A stretch of 36,337 nt of DNA, from IMG/VR virus record IMGVR_UViG_2541047902_000001; one strand, written 5' to 3'. The notes under the pieces were generated by a model that saw nothing but the letters and a program-made list of their open reading frames with translations, was not told the DNA's origin and did no database searches. This stretch comes from a virus (Duplodnaviria; Heunggongvirae; Uroviricota; Caudoviricetes). The position numbers were made by a program, and so were the translations under genes. Shown piece after piece: positions 3,135 through 24,395 of this stretch. Positions within the stretch are counted from its first letter, which is position 1; every line of letters begins with the position of its first letter.

Positions 3135-3737
3135 ATGAGCTATTTTCTGCGCAAAAAATGGATGGTAAATTTGTCCGGGTCAGGAAAAATTTTATGGGCG
3201 CTAAACATGAAAAAAGATTCGTATCCTTATTTGATTTGCATGACAGTTTCAGGGCTGATCTTTATTTTCCTTTTCTTCTGGTGGCGGGCAGATATCTACA
3301 GGGTCACGTTTCTTAATCAGAGTATATCCCACTATTACATTCTGTTTAGCATGGGAATAGCTTTTCTGTTATCTCTGTTTTGGGTTAAGAAGGGGATAGT
3401 AAAACAAAGAGGCTGGAAGAGTCTGTCAGCATACCTTAAGGTTTATGCAGGGATGTGCATATTTGCAGGATTTTTTCTGATTATACCCCTTACGACACTA
3501 ACTTATTTTTTGCCTGGAGAGACATCGTCTTATGTTGCACCGTATCGGTATACTTCCGGTAGTTCAAAAAGTTGTTCTGGAGCTGAGGTGGATGACCCCG
3601 ATCTACATGAGAATATTCGCATTTGCTATCCGTATGGCAATTATGAGTACGATAATATTATCTATGTTGAAAAGAAAATTAATATATTAGGTGCGGTAGT
3701 GACATATGCACAGACCGCGCGTGATGATACTGAATGA
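3135..3737 (+). CDS. Hypothetical polytopic membrane protein; accessory gene antisense to the pL operon (ea8.5/ea22 slot)
   Basis: 200-aa ORF in an AT-rich segment; several hydrophobic helices then a hydrophilic C-terminal domain; alternative start at 3207 (MKKDSYPYL); no family recognised. Confidence 0.5.
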   Translation: MSYFLRKKWMVNLSGSGKILWALNMKKDSYPYLICMTVSGLIFIFLFFWWRADIYRVTFLNQSISHYYILFSMGIAFLLSLFWVKKGIVKQRGWKSLSAYLKVYAGMCIFAGFFLIIPLTTLTYFLPGETSSYVAPYRYTSGSSKSCSGAEVDDPDLHENIRICYPYGNYEYDNIIYVEKKINILGAVVTYAQTARDDTE

Positions 3738-9404: not shown

Positions 9405-10304
9405 TTATTTGATTATTTCTTTTATAAAGACTTCTTTCGGTTGGTATTTTTTATCTGATGATTTGAGCTGGTACGTTATTGTTATATCAGCACGTACAGC
9501 AAATTTACCTGCAAAATCTGATGGGTTTACGTTGGGGCCAAGAACCATATTTACTCTTCGATCTATTAATCCAGGGATAACAGCAGCCCAACCTTTCTCT
9601 GGATTGTCGAGGTCTAATGCACGGATTTCAACATCAACATCAAAATGATCCTGAGTATATGACTCTGGTGTGAAGACAACTTCAGTTGGGGCTTTTTTAA
9701 TGGTTTCAGCGGGAATGGTCACTGTACCACCCCCTGTACCTATGACCATCGTAGATCCTTCGTCTGCCCTAGCTGGGGCAAGCGTCTTAATGGAACTTTT
9801 GGCAAGAGTCTTCTTATTGGTTACCGTGCTTTCTATGATTGCTTGAAGACGGTCAGGTGAAATATTAGCCTCACCGGCACCAATATTGATGATTGTATTG
9901 TTATTTGCTTCAAAGTGGGAGGTGTTGCTTGGAGCCATAGCCTTAGTTGCTAGAACTAAGCCATATCCAACCAGACCAATAACAACAGCACCAACGAGAG
10001 CGTTTCTCATTTTCCCATTTCCGATCTTTGCATGAGCGCCAGCAAGAAACTTGTCCATTTCTTCTTGGCTACCAAAGAGGAGTTTAATAACAATATCTTC
10101 ATAAAGGCTTCCTGCTTCTAATCGCGCAACATGCACCGATATATCAAGGATATTAGCCCCTGTCAGTTCCTGCAAAACACCTTCTGATTGTTTTGCGATG
10201 GCCTCCCACCCTTGAAGGGAGGTAATCACATCTTTGATGCTTACAGGTTCTTTAGTTGAATAATATATGTTTTCGGTAAAGGTTAAAGATAATTCTTGGG
10301 ACAT
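9405..10304 (-). CDS. Unknown 299-aa single-pass membrane protein in the rexAB position (candidate exclusion / abortive-infection gene)
   Basis: ORF downstream of cI on the same strand; SD GAGGG; central hydrophobic helix (about residues 120-143, NALVGAVVIGLVGYGLVLATKAMA); low GC; followed by a terminator; no family recognised. Confidence 0.7.
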   Translation of the reverse strand: MSQELSLTFTENIYYSTKEPVSIKDVITSLQGWEAIAKQSEGVLQELTGANILDISVHVARLEAGSLYEDIVIKLLFGSQEEMDKFLAGAHAKIGNGKMRNALVGAVVIGLVGYGLVLATKAMAPSNTSHFEANNNTIINIGAGEANISPDRLQAIIESTVTNKKTLAKSSIKTLAPARADEGSTMVIGTGGGTVTIPAETIKKAPTEVVFTPESYTQDHFDVDVEIRALDLDNPEKGWAAVIPGLIDRRVNMVLGPNVNPSDFAGKFAVRADITITYQLKSSDKKYQPKEVFIKEIIK

Positions 10305-11885: not shown

Positions 11886-12785
11886 ATGACAAATACAGCA
11901 AAAATACTCAACTTCGGCAGAGGTAACTTTGCCGGACAGGAGCGTAATGTGGCAGATCTCGATGATGGTTACGCCAGACTATCAAATATGCTGCTTGAGG
12001 CTTATTCGGGCGCAGATCTGACCAAGCGACAGTTTAAAGTGCTGCTTGCCATTCTGCGTAAAACCTATGGGTGGAATAAACCAATGGACAGAATCACCGA
12101 TTCTCAACTTAGCGAGATTACAAAGTTACCTGTCAAACGGTGCAATGAAGCCAAGTTAGAACTCGTCAGAATGAATATTATCAAGCAGCAAGGCGGCATG
12201 TTTGGACCAAACAAAAACATCTCAGAATGGTGCATCCCTCAAAACGAGGGAAAATCCCCTAAAACGAGGGATAAAACATCCCTCAAATTGGGGGATTGCT
12301 ATCCCTCAAAACAGGGGGACACAAAAGACACTATTACAAAAGAAAAAAGAAAAGATTATTCGTCAGAGAATTCTGGCGAATCCTCTGACCAGCCAGAAAA
12401 CGACCTTTCTGTGGTGAAACCGGATGCTGCAATTCAGAGCGGCAGCAAGTGGGGGACAGCAGAAGACCTGACCGCCGCAGAGTGGATGTTTGACATGGTG
12501 AAGACCATCGCGCCATCAGCCAGAAAACCGAATTTTGCAGGGTGGGCTAACGATATCCGCCTGATGCGTGAACGTGACGGACGTAACCACCGCGACATGT
12601 GCGTGCTGTTCCGCTGGGCATGCCAGGACAACTTCTGGTCCGGTAACGTGCTGAGCCCGGCCAAACTCCGCGATAAGTGGACCCAACTCGAAATCAACCG
12701 TAACAAGCAACAGGCAGGCGTGACAGCCAGCAAACCAAAACTCGACCTGACAAACACAGACTGGATTTACGGGGTGGATCTATGA
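11886..12785 (+). CDS. O: Replication initiator O
   Basis: 299-aa ORF matching lambda O; contains the ori iterons. Confidence 0.97.
   Translation: MTNTAKILNFGRGNFAGQERNVADLDDGYARLSNMLLEAYSGADLTKRQFKVLLAILRKTYGWNKPMDRITDSQLSEITKLPVKRCNEAKLELVRMNIIKQQGGMFGPNKNISEWCIPQNEGKSPKTRDKTSLKLGDCYPSKQGDTKDTITKEKRKDYSSENSGESSDQPENDLSVVKPDAAIQSGSKWGTAEDLTAAEWMFDMVKTIAPSARKPNFAGWANDIRLMRERDGRNHRDMCVLFRWACQDNFWSGNVLSPAKLRDKWTQLEINRNKQQAGVTASKPKLDLTNTDWIYGVDL
12234..12365. repeat. ori: ori-lambda: four iterons (ATCCCTCAAAACGAGGGA-type) followed by an AT-rich region
   Basis: Four about 19-bp direct repeats at 12234-12319 inside O, then an A-rich tract. Confidence 0.9.
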
Positions 12786-13483
12786 AAAACATCGCCGCAC
12801 AGATGGTTAACTTTGACCGTGAGCAGATGCGTCGGATCGCCAACAACATGCCGGAACAGTACGACGAAAAGCCGCAGGTACAGCAGGTAGCGCAGATCAT
12901 CAACGGTGTGTTCAGCCAGTTACTGGCAACTTTCCCGGCGAGCCTGGCTAACCGTGACCAGAACGAAGTGAACGAAATCCGTCGCCAGTGGGTTCTGGCT
13001 TTTCGGGAAAACGGGATCACCACGATGGAACAGGTTAACGCAGGAATGCGCGTAGCCCGTCGGCAGAATCGACCATTTCTGCCATCACCCGGGCAGTTTG
13101 TTGCATGGTGCCGGGAAGAAGCATCCGTTACCGCCGGACTGCCAAACGTCAGCGAGCTGGTTGATATGGTTTACGAGTATTGCCGGAAGCGAGGCCTGTA
13201 TCCGGATGCGGAGTCTTATCCGTGGAAATCAAACGCGCATTACTGGTTGGTTACCAACTTGTACCAGAACATGCGGGCCAATGCGCTGACTGACGCGGAA
13301 TTACGGCGCAAGGCTGCCGATGAACTGACCTGTATGACAGCGCGAATTAACCGTGGTGAGACGATACCTGAACCAGTAAAACAACTTCCTGTTATGGGCG
13401 GTAGACCTCTAAATCGTGCACAGGCTCTGGCGAAGATCGCAGAAATTAAAGCTAAGTTTGGACTGAAAGGATCGATGAAATAG
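12782..13483 (+). CDS. P: Replication protein P (DnaB helicase loader)
   Basis: 233-aa ORF matching lambda P. Confidence 0.97.
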   Translation: MKNIAAQMVNFDREQMRRIANNMPEQYDEKPQVQQVAQIINGVFSQLLATFPASLANRDQNEVNEIRRQWVLAFRENGITTMEQVNAGMRVARRQNRPFLPSPGQFVAWCREEASVTAGLPNVSELVDMVYEYCRKRGLYPDAESYPWKSNAHYWLVTNLYQNMRANALTDAELRRKAADELTCMTARINRGETIPEPVKQLPVMGGRPLNRAQALAKIAEIKAKFGLKGSMK

Positions 13484-13722
13484 AGCTAAAATATTAGCTT
13501 TAAAATAAAGTATATCTAGCGAATATAATCCAGGACTGGTTGTAATGCCCGCAATAATTGATTGCGTGACTAATAAAATTTTTCTTCCATTGTAATCATT
13601 TAACCATAAAGTTTATGTGGATATTTTATTTGTGTGTTGATTTTTTTGTAACGTTCTGTATATTTCGCACCTCTTGTCATACCAGTTATTTTTTTCATTA
13701 TATTCATAACGTTGATTGAACT

Positions 13723-16700
13723 ATGACCACTGTGAATAAAAAGTTAAAAAAAACTGCATCTGGCGCGATTACATGGTCAGTAATTGTTACCCAGATATTA
13801 TCTCCAGTTTCTCTTTCTTTGATTCCGGCAAACAGTTTTGCATCGTCTGATAATAAAGATGTTACGCAAATTTATGCTAGCGATGAGCGTGCAAATAAAG
13901 TGGCCTCATTTGCAGTAAGTGCAGGTCAGAGTCTGGCGAATAATAATGCAAGTAGTTTTGCTGTAAATACTTTATCAACTCAGGCGACAAAAGAGGTCGT
14001 CGATTGGTTGCAACAATATGGCAATGCGCGCATCAAGCTTAATGTCGATAATTCTTTTTCCTTGAAGGATTCATCATTCGACTTTTTATATCCATGGCTG
14101 GATACTCAGGATTATGTGCTATTCAGTCAAACATCACTACATCGTACTGATGACCGTAATCAGACCAATATTGGTTTGGGGATTCGTCATTTCACTCCTG
14201 ATAATGCAATGTTGGGTGCGAATGTTTTCTACGATTATGATTTAAGTCGCAGCCACTCTCGCGCAGGTTTTGGGGTTGAGTACTGGAGAGATTATTTCAG
14301 GCTTGGTGTAAATACCTATTTTGGTTTATCTGACTGGAAGGACAGTCGGGATATTGATGATTATCTGGAAAGACCCGCAAATGGCTGGGATTTTTCTGCT
14401 GAAGGATGGCTACCTGCTTATCCGCAATTAGGGGCATCTATTCAGTTTGAAAAATATTATGGTAAAAATGTCGGATTATTTGGAAGCGATAATCTGCAGG
14501 AAAACCCTTACGCAGTTACTGGGGGAATTTCTTATACACCAGTTCCTCTGATTAAGTTTTCTGCACAGCATAAGCAAGGACAGAGCAACGTTCACGATAC
14601 AACCTTTGGTGTTGAGTTTAATTACCGCCCAGGCGTTTCCCTTGCTGAACAGCTTAGCAGTGACAATGTTGCAGTTATGCGAGAAGTCCAGAACCGGCGT
14701 TATGATTTTGTTGAACGAAATAACAACATTGTTCTGGAGTACAAGAAGAAGCATGCACTGAAAATCAGCTTACCAGAGTCTGTTCAGGGGGATGGCGAAT
14801 CAATCATCCCTGTAACACTGACAATCAACAATGCCAGTGGTGGTATCAAGTCTGTACAGTGGAATGATAGTGTATTCACTGCGGCTGGCGGTAAGATCAG
14901 TGGAAATGGCACATCATGGCAGGTCACTTTACCGGCTTATAAAAGCGAAGGTGTAAATTCGTGGAATGTTGGAGCCACGGTCCAGGATAATAGAGGCAAC
15001 GTTTCCAACTATGCGGTGATGAATATTAGCGTTATTAATAGTGGTGTCTCGACAGCGGATTCTTCTTTTATGTTGGATGGAGATTCATCTCCGACGATCT
15101 CTGCTGATGGTCAATCCACTCATCCAATAGTATTAAGCCTGAAAGACAGTAACGGTAAGGCATTAACCGGACTGGCTGATGACATTGAAATGTCAGTGGA
15201 ATTTACTGCGGATAGCAATAGTGCTCGACAGCGTGAAACGGTAACTGCCCCGTCATTAGGCGCGGTAGAGGAAATCTCTGCTGGTGTATATCGCTCTGTT
15301 CTGACTGCTGGTTCGCAGGCTGGCACAGTACGTGTAACAGCAAAAGTTCAGGGAAAAACCTTTACTTTGAATATTAAGCAGGCAGCCGTTATTGATAGTG
15401 ATGTCTCGACAGCGGATTCTTCTTTTACGTTGGATGGTGATTCGTCTCCGACGATCTCTGCTGATGGTCAATCCACTCATCCAATAGTATTAAGCCTGAA
15501 AGACAGTAACGGTAAGGCATTAACCGGACTGGCTGATGACATTGAAATGTCAGTGGAATTTACTGCGGATAGCAATAGTGCTCGACAGCGTGAAACGGTA
15601 ACTGCCCCGTCATTAGGCGCGGTAGAGGAAATCTCTGCTGGTGTATATCGCTCTGTTCTGACTGCTGGTTCGCAGGCTGGTACGGTACGTGTAACTGCAA
15701 AAGTAATGGATAAAACATTTACTCTCAGTATTAAGCAAACAGCAGCAACAGAACCTGATTCTGAGGTCAGTGCTGTTTTAACCGCTGCACCAGCAGAACA
15801 GGTAGTTGGTTACAATATCAATCTACAACTGGCAGTGAAGGATTCACAAGGAAATGCAATCACTGGTGATAACACTCTGAGCTTTTATGCTCTTAACCAG
15901 GCAGAAGGAGTCGAGTTTGGGGCTGTAACGGAAAAAGACGGTGTCTATAGCGCGACAGTAACTTCAAAACGAGCTGGTAAGATTCGGATCGGTGTTAAAT
16001 CGGGTAGTCACAATTTCTCAGGTATTGAGAAAGAAATCTCCTTTATTGAAGATCGAACACAGTTCGCATTCTCTCGTATTGAAGCCAGTAAAAATAATGC
16101 ATTGGCTGACGGCAAACAACAGAATACGGTGACTTTAAGCCTTGCAGATCGTTTCGGCAATGTTGTGCCCGGTTATGCTGTTACGCTGTCCTTACCTGCG
16201 GGGGTAACTCAAGTTGGTGGTGAACATGCTGTGTCAACTGACGAAAACGGTAATGCTGTTTTTGCGTTAATAAGCTCCACTCCGGGTTCTTACGTGATTA
16301 AAGCTCATGCTGGTTCTCAGATGTCTACTGAGTTAACAGTAACCTTTGCATCAAATATGATCGGAGCTTCACTGTCACTGACGCCTGGAAACAGTAGCTT
16401 AATTTCCAATATTCCTGCTAATGGTAAGGATGCTGCGGTATTGAATGTGCAACTGACAAATACGAATGCGTCGGTCAATGGACAGAAGATTCAGCTCATC
16501 ACCTCATCTGAAAGATTGTCTGTACCGACAAATATCGTGACTGATTCAACAGGGCATGTTTCCGTACCACTTACAACGGTGAGAGCTGGTGAGTATACGG
16601 TGGCTGCACGAGTGACTGACGGTTCCCATAGTGTGGAGTCTGGCAGCGTTAAGTTAACTTTTGTACCAGATGCTGCTTCCGCAGAACTTACTATGAGTAC

Positions 16701-17631
16701 ATCAAAACAGCAGATTGTGGCCGATGGTAGTGAAAGTGCAACAGTGGACATTCAGTTGGTTGATGCCAATAACAATGCGTTTACAGGCGATGTGGATTTA
16801 ACGGTTACACCATCGACGGGAGCATCATTGACCAGTAGTAAACTGCAGTTGGATGCTCATGGACAGGCAACAACGCAGTTCACAGCATCGAAATCAGGCC
16901 AGTACACAATTCAGGCTGAGTATGTTCTAGATGGGAAACGTATAACCGCAAGCAAAAATATTGATGCCGTGACGGATGTGAAGGAGGCTGTGTTGGAGAT
17001 CACATCATCTGCATCTTCGGCTGTAGTGAGCGATACCAACAATCTGATATTTACGTTACTGTTGAAAAGTACGTCAGGCGAAGTATTAAGTGGTCGAGTA
17101 TTGAATATCAAGGCATCTGGGCCGTCCAAATATGGTGCGTTGGTGGTTGATAAAACCACTGTAACGACTGATGAGTATGGTCTGGCTACGGTAAGCGTAC
17201 ATGGTCGAACGGCTGGTTCGTATAAATTAACGGCGACCTTAGATGAACTTGGCAGTGATGTTAGTGAGGTGAAGTCATTCTCTCTGTATGCTGATGAGGC
17301 AAATGGAGTATTGACACTGCATAAAGATGGAGGCTATGACACAGATGATGGTACTCCAGTGGGGGTTTATGCCCGATTTGTTGACCATTTCGGCAATCCG
17401 TTATCTGGTACGGTTGAGTTTTCTGCTGGTAGTGAAGATAGTCCAAACTCTCAACGGGTTAAAATGGAGCCTGCTACAGTAACGTTACACTGGACAGGTA
17501 ATGCAGCCTCGGAGTTCAGCACCTATGAAAGCGGTTATCACTGGATTAAGGCCAAAATAACGAACAGCAAAAATACATATGAGAAAACAATAAGGACTTA
17601 TGTTGTAAAGCTCCCTGAAAAGGATAGTTAA
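13723..17631 (+). CDS. Invasin/intimin-family inverse autotransporter adhesin with bacterial Ig-like repeats (cargo in the ren slot)
   Basis: 1302-aa ORF; signal-like N-terminus; beta-barrel motifs typical of invasin/intimin beta-domains; long run of Ig-like repeats; AT-rich upstream region; own terminator. Confidence 0.8.
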   Translation: MTTVNKKLKKTASGAITWSVIVTQILSPVSLSLIPANSFASSDNKDVTQIYASDERANKVASFAVSAGQSLANNNASSFAVNTLSTQATKEVVDWLQQYGNARIKLNVDNSFSLKDSSFDFLYPWLDTQDYVLFSQTSLHRTDDRNQTNIGLGIRHFTPDNAMLGANVFYDYDLSRSHSRAGFGVEYWRDYFRLGVNTYFGLSDWKDSRDIDDYLERPANGWDFSAEGWLPAYPQLGASIQFEKYYGKNVGLFGSDNLQENPYAVTGGISYTPVPLIKFSAQHKQGQSNVHDTTFGVEFNYRPGVSLAEQLSSDNVAVMREVQNRRYDFVERNNNIVLEYKKKHALKISLPESVQGDGESIIPVTLTINNASGGIKSVQWNDSVFTAAGGKISGNGTSWQVTLPAYKSEGVNSWNVGATVQDNRGNVSNYAVMNISVINSGVSTADSSFMLDGDSSPTISADGQSTHPIVLSLKDSNGKALTGLADDIEMSVEFTADSNSARQRETVTAPSLGAVEEISAGVYRSVLTAGSQAGTVRVTAKVQGKTFTLNIKQAAVIDSDVSTADSSFTLDGDSSPTISADGQSTHPIVLSLKDSNGKALTGLADDIEMSVEFTADSNSARQRETVTAPSLGAVEEISAGVYRSVLTAGSQAGTVRVTAKVMDKTFTLSIKQTAATEPDSEVSAVLTAAPAEQVVGYNINLQLAVKDSQGNAITGDNTLSFYALNQAEGVEFGAVTEKDGVYSATVTSKRAGKIRIGVKSGSHNFSGIEKEISFIEDRTQFAFSRIEASKNNALADGKQQNTVTLSLADRFGNVVPGYAVTLSLPAGVTQVGGEHAVSTDENGNAVFALISSTPGSYVIKAHAGSQMSTELTVTFASNMIGASLSLTPGNSSLISNIPANGKDAAVLNVQLTNTNASVNGQKIQLITSSERLSVPTNIVTDSTGHVSVPLTTVRAGEYTVAARVTDGSHSVESGSVKLTFVPDAASAELTMSTSKQQIVADGSESATVDIQLVDANNNAFTGDVDLTVTPSTGASLTSSKLQLDAHGQATTQFTASKSGQYTIQAEYVLDGKRITASKNIDAVTDVKEAVLEITSSASSAVVSDTNNLIFTLLLKSTSGEVLSGRVLNIKASGPSKYGALVVDKTTVTTDEYGLATVSVHGRTAGSYKLTATLDELGSDVSEVKSFSLYADEANGVLTLHKDGGYDTDDGTPVGVYARFVDHFGNPLSGTVEFSAGSEDSPNSQRVKMEPATVTLHWTGNAASEFSTYESGYHWIKAKITNSKNTYEKTIRTYVVKLPEKDS
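15040..15753. repeat. Tandem duplication (2 x 357 bp) encoding two nearly identical 119-aa Ig-like domains inside the adhesin gene
   Basis: About 300 bp repeated almost perfectly with a 357-bp period (15046 vs 15403). Confidence 0.9.
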
Positions 17632-17643
17632 CAAAACAGAATA

Positions 17644-17670
17644 GGGAGGGCTAAGCCCTCCCACTTTTTA
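17644..17670 (+). terminator. Intrinsic terminator after the adhesin gene
   Basis: GGGAGGGC-TAA-GCCCTCCC stem followed by a T-run. Confidence 0.7.
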
Positions 17671-17831
17671 ATTGAGACGGACTGTTTCTTAAATTCACTT
17701 ACGTTAGATATGAACTGGTTATTTTTTATAACAATAAAAGACTTTTGATTTTTGAATATCAGTAAGTAATAATGATTTACGTCGACAGACTGAACATCTG
17801 TTGGTGACTTCTGCGCTAAACGGGGACGTTT

Positions 17832-17933
17832 ATGCGCACATACAATCTAAACTCTCTTCTCTCTTCACAGATGCAGAAATGCACCTGCGATTCTTTGCAT
17901 CCAACGTTTGACCTCTGCGGAGGTGAAGCGTGA
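17832..17933 (+). CDS. ylcH: Small Cys-containing protein (DLP12 YlcH-like, 33 aa)
   Basis: [33 protein letters not shown]; stop overlaps the ybcN start; same position and length as DLP12 ylcH. Confidence 0.45.
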
Positions 17934-18385
17934 ACCTCCCACAAGATGGCATCAAATTACATCGCGGTAACTTCACCGCTATCGGTCGGCAGATCCAGCC
18001 TTATCTGGAGGACGGCAAATGCTTTCGCATGGTGCTTAAACCGTGGCGCGAGAGACGCAGTCTTTCCCAGAATGCACTCAGCCACATGTGGTACAGCGAA
18101 ATCAGTGAATACCTCATCAGCAGGGGTAAAACGTTCGCCACTCCAGCTTGGGTAAAAGATGCTCTCAAACACACATATCTCGGTTATGAAACCAAAGACC
18201 TGGTTGATGTCGTAACCGGTGATATCACCACTATCCAGTCGTTACGCCATACCTCCGATCTTGATACCGGAGAGATGTATGTCTTCCTGTGTAAGGTTGA
18301 AGCCTGGGCGGTGAATATTGGCTGCCACCTGACTATTCCGCAGAGCTGCGAGTTCCAGCTGCTCCGCGACAAGCAGGAGGCGTAA
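17930..18385 (+). CDS. ybcN: YbcN-family protein in the NinB position of the nin region
   Basis: 151-aa ORF matching recalled DLP12 YbcN; SD GGAGGTG; GTG start. Confidence 0.8.
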
Positions 18386-19335: not shown

Positions 19336-19420
19336 AGTCAGAGATAACAATCAACTAATACTGTTTTGTTGATTTTTGCTTGTAATTGGCGTTCTGGTCT
19401 GAGTTTTGTGGAGTAAGTTG

Positions 19421-19798
19421 ATGCGTGATATTCAGATGGTTCTTGAGCGTTGGGGAGCGTGGGCGGCTAATAATCATGAAGATGTGACCTGGTCGTCCAT
19501 TGCCGCCGGTTTTAAGGGATTAATTCCTTCAAAAGTAAAATCTCGCCCGCAATGTTGTGACGATGACGCGATGATCATTTGCGGGTGCATGGCCCGTCTG
19601 AAAAAGAACAACAGCGATTTGCATGATTTATTGGTGGACTATTATGTCGGCGGCATGACTTTTATGGCGCTTGCACGTAAGCATGGGCGATCTGATTGTT
19701 GGGTTGGCAGGATGCTCCAGAAAGCTGAGGGCGTAGTGGAGGGTATGCTGATGGTGTTGGATCTCCGATTGGAGATGGATGCTGATTGTTCGAAATAA
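19421..19798 (+). CDS. Q: Late-gene antiterminator Q, phage-82/DLP12 QuuD type
   Basis: 125-aa frame from ATG 19421 ([24 protein letters not shown]...) with Cys-rich putative zinc-binding region. Confidence 0.85.
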
Positions 19799-19953: not shown

Positions 19954-20478
19954 TTATTGTTTAACCCATAATAATTCATTGACATTGAATCCCAACTTTT
20001 GAGCGGTTCGCACATAGTCTGCTTTTACTTTATCTGGAATAGTTGGGGTCCTTGCCAGAATCCATAGGTATTCTCTGTTCGGACCACTGACAAGAGCATA
20101 CTTATACTCATCATCCAGTTTGATTACATTATAGCCACCATAGAAGGGGCCAAAAAACGAAACCTTCAACGCTGCAGTTTTAGTATCTCCAGTAAAGTAT
20201 GCTTTACCTTCGCTCTCGCTCCATTTATTTTTCGTTGGATCGTATCCACGGTTAAGTACACGAATCCCTCCGTCGTTCCGTTTTCCATAAGTAGCGCTGA
20301 CCTGTTCCAGACCACGTTCGAACCGGTTCTCGAGGCGAGCTATTTCATACCACTTTCCGAGGTAGCGGTTGGCGTCAAAATTTGTAATCGGCTGCACACC
20401 TTTAGGTGGTGTCGGGGCCTTACATGCTATAAGAGTGAAAGAGAGTGCAATGCCAGTCAACACAGGCCATAACTTCAT
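19954..20478 (-). CDS. Bacterial lipocalin (Blc-like outer-membrane lipoprotein)
   Basis: 174-aa ORF with lipobox LIAC and conserved lipocalin motifs (NFDANRYLGKWYEIARLENRFERG..., FFGPFYGGYNVI); opposite orientation to the late operon. Confidence 0.8.
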   Translation of the reverse strand: MKLWPVLTGIALSFTLIACKAPTPPKGVQPITNFDANRYLGKWYEIARLENRFERGLEQVSATYGKRNDGGIRVLNRGYDPTKNKWSESEGKAYFTGDTKTAALKVSFFGPFYGGYNVIKLDDEYKYALVSGPNREYLWILARTPTIPDKVKADYVRTAQKLGFNVNELLWVKQ

Positions 20479-20670
20479 AATAAATCCTGTACTTTTGATA
20501 GTTGAGAGTAAGTATGAAAGATAGATGATTACGACCGATCACTTAAAGAACTTTCATACTATATTAGGAATAGTCCATAACAGAAAAATTGTCAGTGATG
20601 ACGCCAGAAAGGCAATTTATTCCGTGCACTACACAGTTTATGTGTTAATGAATTAGTCAAGGGGGAGGAT

Positions 20671-21630
20671 ATGATAAAAAAACCTGTGATTGGAATCAGC
20701 GGTTGTCTGGCCGGTTCTGCTGTTCGTTTTGATGGTGGTCACAAAAGAGCTGACTTTTTAATGGACAAATTAGTGGAATGGGTAACATTCAGACCAGTAT
20801 GTCCGGAAATGGCTATAGGGCTGCCAGTTCCGCGTCCTGCTCTACGTCTTGTGCGCTCGACGCAAGGAAATATACGGATGTGTTTCAGCCACGACCAGAA
20901 TGAGGATGTGACAGAGAGAATGACAGAGTTTAGTCGTTCTTATATGGACAAATTAAAGGATGTATCGGGGTTTGTGGTTTGTGCTAAATCTCCCAGCTGT
21001 GGCATGGAGCGCGTGCGTGTCTATGATGAAAATGGTAATCGAGGTCGTAAAGATGGAGTGGGACTATTTACGAGCACTTTGATGGAAAAGTTTTCCTGGC
21101 TACCGGTTGAAGAGGATGGGCGATTACATGATCCAGTGCTTCGTGAGAATTTTGTTGAAAGAGTTTTTGCTTTGCATGAGCTCAATCACCTTTACAAGGA
21201 GAAATTATCAAGAAGAGAGTTATTAGCTTTTCATAGTCGTTATAAGCTTCAGTTGTTGGCGCATAGTCAGGCAGGCTATAAAGATATGGGACCATTTGTG
21301 GCTGCAATACACGAGTGGGCGGACCTTGAATCATACTTTGAGGTGTATCGTGATAAGCTGATGGCGATTCTCAGAAAACCTGCATCACGTAAAAATCACA
21401 CGAATGTGATGATGCATATACAGGGGTATTTTAGTAACTACTTAAGTACACGCCAGCGTAAAGAGTTGAGCGAGGTTATACTTAACTATCGTTCTGGCAC
21501 ATTACCTCTTCTTGCGCCGTTGACTCTGCTGAAGCATTATCTGGGTGAGTATCCTAATGATTACTTGCTTACACAGAATTACTTCGATCCCTATCCGGAC
21601 GAACTGGCTCTAAGACTGATGGTAAATTAA
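20671..21630 (+). CDS. DUF523/DUF1722-family protein (YbgA/TudS-like, Cys-rich)
   Basis: 319-aa ORF; N-terminal Cys positions GISGCLAG, RPVCPEM, CAKSPSCGMERV resemble the DUF523 fold; C-terminal extension. Confidence 0.55.
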   Translation: MIKKPVIGISGCLAGSAVRFDGGHKRADFLMDKLVEWVTFRPVCPEMAIGLPVPRPALRLVRSTQGNIRMCFSHDQNEDVTERMTEFSRSYMDKLKDVSGFVVCAKSPSCGMERVRVYDENGNRGRKDGVGLFTSTLMEKFSWLPVEEDGRLHDPVLRENFVERVFALHELNHLYKEKLSRRELLAFHSRYKLQLLAHSQAGYKDMGPFVAAIHEWADLESYFEVYRDKLMAILRKPASRKNHTNVMMHIQGYFSNYLSTRQRKELSEVILNYRSGTLPLLAPLTLLKHYLGEYPNDYLLTQNYFDPYPDELALRLMVN

Positions 21631-22124
21631 TTGTATGCGATATCATCCAAAAGGATGAGTTCCTGCATGCAGGATATTTACAATCGTAAAAACTACACTA
21701 TGATACCCAGAGTGTCAGTTTGTATAAAAACTCTGTTTACGCTGAAGAAACCATTGAGATGCAACTTAAAGTTGGTAAACATGCCAGTCAAAATATATAA
21801 TATTATGATTCCACGCAGCTATATATAATATAACAGATTGGTTTAATAATTTGTCTTTGTGAGTTAAATACATAATTTTATACTTGTGATGCAATGAGAT
21901 TTTCCTTATTGTTGAACTGGCGAATATTGATTTTCCACCTATACTTACTTGGTGTAACCCCAATGATATCAGGTGGATAATATGCCATACATATGTTCTA
22001 TCATTTTGGTGTTGAACTCGTTTGATGTCCGAATTGGTAAAGAAGATATTTTATTTAAAAAAGGAAGTGCTGTTCTCATTGATTAAAATTTAAAAGATTT
22101 TTTTCATCAAATATAGATCATGCA

Positions 22125-22706
22125 ATGATCGTAGATGTTGAAGAGAAAACAGTTAATGATTTCTTTAAAAGCAACACACTCTCACCTTTTTCTGTAAGAA
22201 GGTTTTATCCGGCATACTTGATGGTGGAATGTGAAGATTTTTCATTGTTAAAGAACTTGATTGCATGCTTGAATTGTGATGGCAGAACTGTGGATTTTGT
22301 TAGAAATCAAATATCACTTGCATGTCTTGCTATCTTATCTTCAGAGAAAATAGTGCAAAGTTTTTTATTTGGATGTCTTAATAGTTTAGGAAGTAAAGTT
22401 AAGGCTATTATTCACACGGATATATCTGCAGCATGGAGACTTTGTGATATATCTTCAAGACTGTATCTGAGTGAAAGTCTGTTAAAAAGAAAATTAAAGC
22501 ACGAAGGCTTATCATTTAGTAAGTTAATTCTTGAAGAGCGAATGGTGATGGCGGAAAGGTTATTAAGCTACAATTTATATTCTGTTGGAAAAGTTGCTGA
22601 GATATGCGGTTATGAAAACACGTCATATTTTGTAAGTGTTTTCAGAAGATATTTTTGTGTTCCTCCCCATCAATATTCATCAAGATTTTTTTTAGAAAAG
22701 ACATGA
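22125..22706 (+). CDS. AraC-family transcriptional regulator (C-terminal HTH), probably the downstream part of a frameshifted gene
   Basis: 193-aa ORF with AraC-type HTH; very AT-rich; a 34-codon ORF with strong SD at 21982 ends at 22086 in another frame. Confidence 0.6.
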   Translation: MIVDVEEKTVNDFFKSNTLSPFSVRRFYPAYLMVECEDFSLLKNLIACLNCDGRTVDFVRNQISLACLAILSSEKIVQSFLFGCLNSLGSKVKAIIHTDISAAWRLCDISSRLYLSESLLKRKLKHEGLSFSKLILEERMVMAERLLSYNLYSVGKVAEICGYENTSYFVSVFRRYFCVPPHQYSSRFFLEKT

Positions 22707-22899
22707 TGTAACGTGATGCGTTTTAATGATTTTGTAATTTTCGTATTTGATAATTGTATGATGCTTTCAGCTACGCCAGAATAATCGCTGGCGTTTTTCT
22801 TTTTGAATAGATGTTCAAGCCTTACGCTAATGTAACTTCTATACCTTTCCTCTTCGTTCCGAACCGTGTACACCATCCGTTATTTGCGGAGGTGAGGCT

Positions 22900-23115
22900 A
22901 TGAAATCCATGGATAAGTTAACAACGGGCATTGCCTACGGCACCTCCGCAGGCAGTGCTGGCTACTGGTTTTTACAGCTGCTCGATAAAGTCACGCCCTC
23001 ACAGTGGGCAGCAATAGGTGTGCTGGGTAGCTTGGTATTTGGCCTGCTGACGTACCTGACAAACCTTTATTTCAAGATTAAAGAAGATAAGCGCAAGGCT
23101 GCGAGAGGTGAATAA
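22900..23115 (+). CDS. S: Class II holin (pinholin), phage-21 S21 type with dual-start motif
   Basis: 71-aa [32 protein letters not shown]... matching recalled S21; two TM segments. Confidence 0.9.
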
Positions 23116-23612
23116 TGCCTCCATCATTACGAAAAGCCGTTGCTGCTGCTATTGGTGGCGGAGCAATTGCTATAGCATCAGTGTTAATCACTGGTCCAGG
23201 TGGTAACGATGGTCTGGAGGGTGTCAGCTACATACCATACAAAGATATTGTTGGTGTATGGACTGTATGTCACGGGCATACAGGAAAAGACATCATGCTC
23301 GGTAAAACGTATACCAAAGCAGAATGCAAAGCACTCTTGAATAAAGACCTTGCCACTGTCGCCAGACAAATTAACCCGTACATCAAAGTCGATATACCGG
23401 AAACAACGCGCGGCGCTCTTTACTCATTCGTTTACAACGTGGGTGCTGGCAATTTCAGAACATCGACGCTTCTTCGCAAAATAAACCAGGGCGATATCAA
23501 AGGCGCATGTGATCAGTTACGTCGCTGGACATATGCTGGCGGTAAGCAATGGAAAGGTCTCATGACTCGTCGTGAGATTGAGCGTGAAATCTGTTTGTGG
23601 GGTCAGCAATGA
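23115..23612 (+). CDS. R: SAR endolysin (lysozyme), phage-21 R21 type
   Basis: 165-aa ORF with N-terminal signal-anchor-release segment ([20 protein letters not shown]) and lysozyme domain; matches recalled R21. Confidence 0.9.
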
Positions 23613-24070: not shown

Positions 24071-24101
24071 AGCTGCCCATATCGATGGGCAACTCATGCA
24101 A

Positions 24102-24395
24102 TTATTGTGAGCAATAGACACGCGCTTCCAGCGGAGTATAAATGCCTAAAGTAATAAAACCGAGCAATCCATTTACGAATGTTTGCTGGGTTTCTGTTTT
24201 AACAACATTTTCTGCGCCGCCACAAATTTTGGCTGCATCAACAGTTTTCTCCTGTCCAATTCCCGAAACGAAGAAATGATGGGTGATGGTTTCCTTTGGT
24301 GTTACTGCTGTCGGTTTGTTTCCAACAGTAAACGTCTGTTGAGCACATCCTGTAATAAGCATTGCCAGAGCGGCAGAAAACAACATTTTTTTCAT
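24102..24395 (-). CDS. bor: Bor lipoprotein (serum-resistance)
   Basis: 97-aa frame from MKKMLFSAALAMLITGC... matching lambda Bor. Confidence 0.9.
   Translation of the reverse strand: MKKMLFSAALAMLITGCAQQTFTVGNKPTAVTPKETITHHFFVSGIGQEKTVDAAKICGGAENVVKTETQQTFVNGLLGFITLGIYTPLEARVYCSQ

Follow-up and report, generated by a model that had tools for sequence, protein, structure and literature searches.

A lambdoid prophage represented by IMG/VR virus record IMGVR_UViG_2541047902_000001 (36,337 nucleotides; this whole stretch is called the window below) carries a segment at 13484–17670, between its replication gene P and its nin region, that is probably a self-contained cargo cassette encoding an FdeC-like inverse autotransporter adhesin, with the mechanism taken from the protein family. 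The left edge is the base directly 3′ of the stop codon of P (12782–13483, lambda-type), and the right edge is the end of the T-run of a terminator. An earlier sequence-only reading of this DNA had proposed here an invasin-like inverse autotransporter of 1302 amino acids (aa) encoded by a gene of 3.9 kb. It is evident that the gene is indeed a single intact open reading frame (ORF) of this size, which opens with ATG on the plus strand and has no internal stops, and the disruption named in that reading as a reason for doubt is not seen in the window copy. The exact 1302-aa protein is found on 476 contigs in public databases, and thus the ORF is not a private artefact. Its RefSeq entry bears the generic product name “inverse autotransporter beta domain-containing protein”.

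By its predicted domains, the product is an inverse autotransporter of the type Ve secretion class. The Pfam model IAT_beta (PF11924) matches aa 69–334 (E = 1.4e-100; 337 bits against a cut-off of 22.3), which places the barrel N-terminal to the passenger, and the barrel region also matches the structures of invasin (PDB 4E1T, E = 9.7e-74) and intimin (4E1S, E = 1e-63). In the passenger, Big_1 (E = 5.8e-54) and Invasin_D3 (E = 1.7e-53) were matched in five and six stretches, respectively, so that both the inverse autotransporter barrel and the Ig-like domains expected earlier were recovered by domain search. The N-terminus, previously described as signal-like, reads in translation as a putative signal peptide with a lysine-rich start, a hydrophobic core and the motif SFA/SS, and this region aligns with the N-terminus of FdeC. 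We divided the passenger into nine Ig-like domains, namely D00, two copies of a 119-aa repeat, and D4 to D9, among which the later ones show weak matches to FdeC (4E9L) and invasin (1CWV). Tandem Repeats Finder reports the repeat at 15030–15737, with a period of 357 bp, 2.0 copies and 95% matches, and a single 119-aa unit matches Invasin_D3 (E = 7e-12). The repeat was defined from the DNA and the family alignment, because a blastp search of the protein against itself returned the full-length self-match only. A 357-bp draft contig of Moraxella osloensis (CAXORL010000232.1; locus L045) is 97% identical to this Ig repeat over one period, and it is probably E. coli contamination in which a tandem repeat has collapsed.

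The closest characterized relative is FdeC. Outside the family itself, no E. coli DNA matches the barrel better than fdeC (about 66%), and the FdeC of strain Nissle 1917 (1416 aa) is collinear with the prophage protein over aa 15–1198 at 33% identity, rising to 56% in the barrel alone. Given the shared architecture and this collinear alignment, the protein is best described as an FdeC-like paralogue. The 1302 residues include no cysteine, and no match to LysM, C-type-lectin or intimin C-terminal domains was found in the Pfam and per-domain scans. The protein also stays below the curated NCBIfam cut-off of all the named models (IatC, intimin, SinH, Ilp, YrIlm, Inv and YchO), scoring for example 334.8 bits with intimin_all (cut-off 1400) and 276 bits with Inv (cut-off 710). 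The earlier term “invasin-like” therefore holds for the secretion class and the barrel; it does not extend to a protein without cysteine, LysM and lectin tip that falls under these cut-offs and has FdeC/EaeH as its closest counterpart.

The distal tip, D9, is nearly an orphan. In a full HMMER scan, the last 118 aa gave 19 matches among 1.84 billion cluster representatives; those covering the whole length belong to its own family or to E. albertii fragments of 53–57% identity, and the remaining ones cover short stretches. The E. albertii fragments, annotated “hypothetical protein”, are collinear through D8 and D9 at 50–57% identity. Searched by sequence, D9 has no match in the PDB. An hhalign comparison of the tip with the internal Ig domains gave E = 5e-4 and a probability of 31%, in the expected strand register. 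The AlphaFold2 model from a three-sequence alignment is all-beta in the tip (tip-block predicted local distance difference test [pLDDT] 54–78, mean 52.9), and a single-sequence model of aa 1080–1302 reached a pLDDT of 40.6. A Foldseek search with the tip model returned Ig-like structures, including intimin D0-D1, intimin D00-D0 and InvD, and no lectin; these matches are only supportive, since the confidence of the model is moderate to low. Taken together, D9 may be a divergent Ig-like domain, a predicted assignment of low structural confidence.

By analogy with characterized inverse autotransporters, we infer the secretion route, surface display, adhesion and expression of the protein as follows. 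The preprotein would be exported by Sec through its N-terminal signal peptide, and the barrel would be inserted into the outer membrane by the beta-barrel assembly machinery (BAM). The passenger would then be threaded through the barrel and fold as a rod of nine Ig-like domains, which would present the family-specific D9 tip for binding to host or abiotic surfaces. Adhesion and biofilm formation would be the likeliest phenotype, and we hypothesize that the gene could change both through lysogenic conversion. The evidence for this is indirect: an intact gene, purifying selection on it, and adhesin behavior of its characterized relatives. The coordinates of the features are collected in Table 1.

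Table 1. Features of the adhesin cassette and the adjoining segment (positions in the window; residues of the 1302-aa product as aa)
Feature	Position	Strand	Basis or remark
Upstream spacer, AT-rich, putative regulatory	13484..13722	+	28% GC; from P stop codon to adhesin start codon
Sigma-70 promoter candidate 1	13500-13529	+	TTAAAA-18-TATAAT, consensus-level, promoter scan
Sigma-70 promoter candidate 2	13637-13664	+	TTGATT-16-TATATT, consensus-level, promoter scan
Sigma-70 promoter candidate 3	13674-13701	+	TTGTCA-16-CATTAT, consensus-level, promoter scan
Inverse-autotransporter gene	13723..17631	+	1302 aa plus stop; Pfam matches; RefSeq WP_001550848.1
Putative Sec signal peptide, aa 1-40	13723..13842	+	By inspection: Lys-rich start, hydrophobic core, SFA/SS near residue 40
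Beta-barrel translocator and linker, aa 69-341	13927..14745	+	PF11924 match; related solved barrels are 12-stranded
First Ig-like domain (D00-like), aa 342-441	14746..15045	+	Intimin D00-D0 (6TQD), E 1.7e-9, aa 342-442
Tandem Ig-like repeat, 2 x 119 aa (aa 442-560, 561-679)	15046..15759	+	Tandem Repeats Finder
Five Ig-like domains D4-D8 (Big_1/Invasin_D3), aa 680-1190	15760..17292	+	Per-domain scans; FdeC-collinear to aa 1198
Distal tip D9, divergent Ig-like (putative), aa 1191-1302	17293..17628	+	Big_1 E 0.067; near-orphan sequence
Intrinsic terminator	17644..17670	called on both strands	GGGAGGGC-TAA-GCCCTCCC then ACTTTTT
Cassette-type-specific segment, 116 bp	17671..17786	.	Replaces the 1.35-kb alpha/beta-hydrolase segment of the ST131-type cassette

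The setting of the gene is that of phage cargo. The sequence from 13484 to 17700 is 100% identical to E. coli strain 144, whose annotation shows the window as a lambdoid prophage inserted at ybhC, a site that we take to be the lambda attachment region. The gene order on the left is int, xis, exo/bet/gam, kil, cIII, ral, sieB, cI, cro, cII, O, P and the adhesin gene; to its right follow an ORF of 102 nucleotides, ybcN, ninE, ybcO, rusA, ylcG, Q, cargo genes and the lysis genes, and beyond these iss/bor, the terminase, the head genes and the tail genes. The adhesin gene thus lies between P and the nin genes, at the position of lambda ren as claimed earlier: the locus has no ren gene, and in phage PhiR30_1 ren is directly 3′ of P. 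For free lambdoid phages (e.g., phage 82 and PhiR68_2), the match to the window starts only at 17787. After P they hold other genes, namely ren, an acyltransferase and a lipoprotein in PhiR30_1, and ybcK, ybcL and ybcM in PhiR68_2, which identifies the P-to-nin junction as a variable cargo slot. All copies examined have P on one side of the cassette and ybcN on the other, and they occupy at least two prophage backbones (at ybhC and at icd). Base composition also sets it apart. The 239-bp spacer has a GC content of 28%, in agreement with the AT-rich upstream DNA noted in the sequence-only reading, and the gene has 43.9%, against about 50% in the flanking phage genes; GC content at third codon positions (GC3) is 35.8% in the adhesin gene and 54–61% in the neighboring O, P, ybcN and terL. 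On the grounds of flank comparison, base composition and its own terminator, the segment is a moron-type cargo cassette of a lambdoid phage, and its earlier description as cargo is borne out by the free phages with shared flanks and by the distinct GC3. A tblastn search of deposited phage genomes found the gene in none; the only matches, from a Salmonella draft-genome record and from a record of 2 kb, were inverse autotransporters of about 30% identity.

Phage structural proteins often bear Ig-like domains, and one structural match of the tip model is an Ig-like protein of the phage Chi neck. A virion-associated decoration or fibre protein might be read from this, and a decaying pseudogene was also considered; the two together are extremely improbable, and we rejected both. 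The putative signal peptide and outer-membrane barrel, together with an early-region position far from the head and tail genes, argue against a virion protein, and the intact ORF, which is under purifying selection, argues against a pseudogene.

The cassette is bounded by candidate regulatory sequences. The start-proximal ~70 bp of the spacer, which hold the last two of the three promoter candidates, are conserved in two icd-prophage copies (PAR and an ST131 isolate) and also before the start codon of the chromosomal E. albertii homologue, in which the rest of the spacer is poorly conserved. A search of the spacer for the H-NS high-affinity motif gave no convincing site, and an Rfam scan of 13300–18100 gave no match. 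At the other end, the terminator attributed to the gene by the sequence-only reading is a hairpin at 17644–17662 followed by a T-run; its 8-bp stem has 7 G-C pairs, and its folding energy is −17.4 kcal/mol (z = −4.1 against shuffles). In the ST131-type cassette (ST, sequence type), the adhesin gene converges with an alpha/beta-hydrolase gene, and the terminator separates their stop codons. We considered whether the 116-bp segment that follows in the window is a remnant of the hydrolase segment and rejected this, the sequences being unrelated. These features suggest how the gene may be expressed. In a lysogen, it would be transcribed from its own promoter within the AT-rich spacer. The composition of this spacer suggests that H-NS would probably silence the promoter and that silencing would be relieved under certain conditions, as with fdeC. 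Transcription of the cassette would end at the strong terminator before reaching the nin genes and Q; any lysogen-active promoter upstream of Q would need a stop of this kind. After a switch to lytic growth, the gene would lie within the pR transcript, and N-modified polymerase would read through the terminator.

Among species-representative genomes, the only relative is in the E. albertii type strain, with 80% identity over aa 1–237 up to the end of a contig. In E. albertii NBRC 107761 (locus L044, 1–8713), the homologue is directly downstream of ydcR, ydcSTUV and patD, and no phage genes were found upstream of it on the contig. With the E. albertii N-terminus as query, a protein search yielded fragments only. 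The adhesin family is thus represented by a chromosomal gene in E. albertii and by phage cargo in E. coli. A chromosomal homologue with the same ~70-bp block before its start codon is in keeping with a lambdoid phage having picked up the whole transcription unit, and the transfer could have gone in either direction. This homologue also bears on the idea that the protein serves the phage, being made mainly from the pR transcript after induction and either clumping neighboring cells, so that progeny find hosts more easily, or altering the envelope and thereby excluding other phages. The gene belongs to the delayed-early transcription unit and has the orientation of O, P, the nin genes and Q, and the same prophage carries sieB and the envelope cargo iss/bor and lipocalin. 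We nevertheless regard a role of this kind as very unlikely, because an AT-rich upstream region and a terminator of its own make the gene a separate unit, and because the E. albertii homologue keeps the promoter-proximal block at a chromosomal locus outside any phage. Moreover, we know of no inverse autotransporter that acts in exclusion.

Among 5426 complete E. coli genomes, 561 carry the whole cassette at 90% identity or more, and 558 (about 10%) carry the barrel region over at least 80% of its length. By identity of the barrel, 53 records are at least 99% identical to the window and 508 are at 95–99%. The two genomes with the window allele that we examined have the same ybhC-side prophage and identical flanking host proteins, which suggests that this allele represents a single lineage. 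The commoner allele, of about 94% protein identity, is carried by a different lambdoid prophage at icd with another integrase and another immunity region. In this allele the convergent alpha/beta-hydrolase gene comes next, and the terminator is common to both. The hydrolase of the icd-integrated prophages has 347 aa (16195–17238 in locus L002 and 22420–23463 in locus L049) and is missing from the window. EC958, the reference strain of the pandemic ST131, has a form of 1421 aa, EC958_RS06345. The same two cassette types were found on 37 IMG/VR viral contigs; in every contig that includes the flanks, P precedes the cassette and ybcN follows it.

The 357-bp Ig repeat is present in 1–4 copies, which gives proteins of 1183, 1302, 1421 and 1540 aa, so that the length of the predicted rod would be adjustable. 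A protein that lacks one repeat and is otherwise identical to that of the window is found on 158 contigs, which suggests that copy number changes quickly. There are at least three alleles of mosaic structure, whose barrels share at least 98.9% identity and whose D7–D9 share 85–93%. Comparison of the window with the PAR allele (an icd-prophage copy of the 94% type) gives a dN/dS of 0.15 for the whole gene and 0.02 for the barrel, at a dS of 0.18. As far as sequence comparison can tell, a low dN/dS ratio combined with variability increasing toward the tip is the pattern of a functional, surface-exposed protein.

Several observations weigh against the reading of the cassette as a working adhesin unit. 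Promoter-like sites are no more frequent in the spacer than in shuffled sequence, and hence the three candidates are leads only; the Shine-Dalgarno sequence of the gene is weak. Some copies are broken by IS66-family elements or by partial deletions, so that some lineages can evidently do without the gene. Confidence in the tip model is low (mean pLDDT 52.9), and the ligand cannot be guessed from a tip that has no characterized relative. A clinical hint in the literature (PMC8541385) concerns a gene that contains repeats, and other mutations confound it.

Part of this evidence would equally be expected if the gene encoded a genuine inverse autotransporter that is xenogeneically silenced in lysogens and hitch-hikes on successful prophages. 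Low-GC DNA is a typical target of H-NS silencing, and a 28% GC spacer in front of a low-GC gene is DNA of this type; FdeC is reportedly under H-NS control, to go by the title of a study cited in PMC6714894. The chance-level promoter matches and the disruption of some copies by insertion sequences are also in line with a silent gene, and the 53 genomes with the allele of at least 99% identity may be one clone, the two examined having the same prophage. We consider a silent passenger unlikely, since a dN/dS of 0.15 at a dS of 0.18 and a near-invariant barrel point to long-term selection on the protein, since its variability grows toward the tip, as surface exposure would lead one to expect, and since two prophage backbones and about 10% of complete genomes retain the cassette. 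A self-contained cassette for an FdeC-like adhesin thus remains the probable reading.

Other cargo was noted in the window. Between Q (19406–19798) and the holin gene S (22900), in the slot used for stx by Stx (Shiga toxin) phages, 19954–22706 holds a lipocalin gene (19954–20478, minus strand), a gene for a YbgA-like protein with 2-thiouracil desulfurase and DUF1722 domains (20671–21630), and an ORF with an AraC-type helix-turn-helix (22125–22706), whose counterpart in strain 144 is annotated as frameshifted. The serum-survival lipoprotein gene iss/bor follows Rz at ~24100–24395 (minus strand; coordinates transferred from strain 144) and is a second surface-related cargo gene of the prophage. 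Coordinates in strain 144 shift by 1 bp relative to the window somewhere between ~17700 and 19954, and the window thus does not seem to be precisely this genome, despite the fully identical cassette region. Beside cI, at the position of lambda rexAB, a 299-aa ORF (9405–10304, minus strand) has no Pfam and no PADLOC match and could be an unknown exclusion or defence gene. A 200-aa orphan ORF (3135–3737, plus strand, 38% GC), also with no Pfam or PADLOC match, lies between xis and a TraR/DksA-like gene.

Seven groups of E. coli inverse autotransporters were described from 126 genomes including EC958, for which only fdeC, iatA and iatB were recorded in the table (Goh et al. 2019, PMC6714894). The family of the prophage adhesin was therefore uncounted in a surveyed strain that carries it, and virulence-gene surveys built on this main E. 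coli catalogue overlook the adhesin. We found no literature on a named prophage inverse autotransporter except for a passing mention by Terwilliger et al. (2021, PMC8541385) of an ST131 gene with the former locus tag EC958_1349, and no other papers citing that locus. The description fits the icd-prophage gene EC958_RS06345, to which the former tag may correspond. Papers on IatC/eaeX, YeeJ and SinH were set aside as accounts of the prophage adhesin, as they deal with other genes.

A much bolder interpretation is that the family forms an eighth class of E. coli inverse autotransporter, spread by lambdoid phages through recombination in the P–nin slot, with repeat-tuned projection and a novel receptor, and acting as a colonization factor of ST131. 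We hold this to be doubtful. If it were true, the number of Ig repeats would tune projection of the tip beyond capsule and O-antigen, the orphan tip would bind a receptor used by no characterized adhesin, and the gene would be a lysogenic-conversion colonization factor in extraintestinal pathogenic lineages such as ST131. Under the probable reading, an FdeC-like adhesin on a cargo cassette, a temperate phage would, if the gene is expressed, give E. coli a large FdeC-like adhesin in one step, and the prophage adhesin may help explain differences in colonization among lineages. FdeC has been described as a vaccine candidate (PMC8541385), and a phage-borne FdeC paralogue with a variable exposed passenger bears on adhesin redundancy and on the choice of antigen. 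The interest of the gene lies in its being widespread, conserved, outside the main published catalogue and easy to test.

Compared with known systems, the prophage protein is most like FdeC/EaeH, with whose signal peptide its own putative one aligns and with which it shares a short N-terminal stretch, the absence of LysM, an inverse autotransporter barrel, about 9–10 Ig-like domains and the absence of a lectin cap; FdeC is described as a protein without LysM and lectin cap (Goh et al. 2019, PMC6714894). The two differ in that FdeC/EaeH occupies a fixed chromosomal locus beside aldo/keto-reductase genes, whereas the new adhesin is prophage cargo. FdeC is also longer (1416 aa versus 1302 aa) and ends in two extra C-terminal domains that are unrelated in sequence to the D9 tip, and the variable tandem Ig repeat belongs to the prophage adhesin. 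An identification as the FdeC orthologue was rejected in view of the 33% identity and of the prophage slot in place of the fdeC neighborhood. InvA and intimin share a homologous barrel, a Big_1/Invasin_D3 passenger and a D00-like first domain with the prophage adhesin, but they carry a C-type-lectin-like tip with a disulfide. The prophage adhesin has neither this tip nor LysM, and a disulfide is impossible in a protein without cysteine. Intimin is further distinguished by its LEE/Tir context (LEE, locus of enterocyte effacement), which is missing around the prophage adhesin. Invasin or intimin proper was thus rejected for want of a lectin tip and cysteine and for scores under the Inv and intimin_all cut-offs. 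IatB (SinH), IatC, IatD and YeeJ are of the same secretion class as the prophage adhesin, and over-expressed IatB, IatC and IatD are surface-located in K-12 and drive biofilm formation (PMC6714894). YeeJ, IatC and IatD carry LysM and a C-type lectin cap (PMC6714894), whereas the prophage adhesin has neither.

Known outer-membrane cargo of lambdoid phages includes lambda lom, bor/iss and the prophage-borne Eib trimeric autotransporters. An adhesin is not surprising in principle, as lambdoid phages often carry such cargo. Like these examples, the gene encodes a predicted surface protein and is borne by a temperate lambdoid phage; unlike them, it belongs to another protein family, it sits at the P–nin junction and not in the lysis or tail slots, and at 3.9 kb it is much larger. 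The adhesin is therefore an uncharacterized addition to a well-known protein class, in a well-known type of phage cargo slot.

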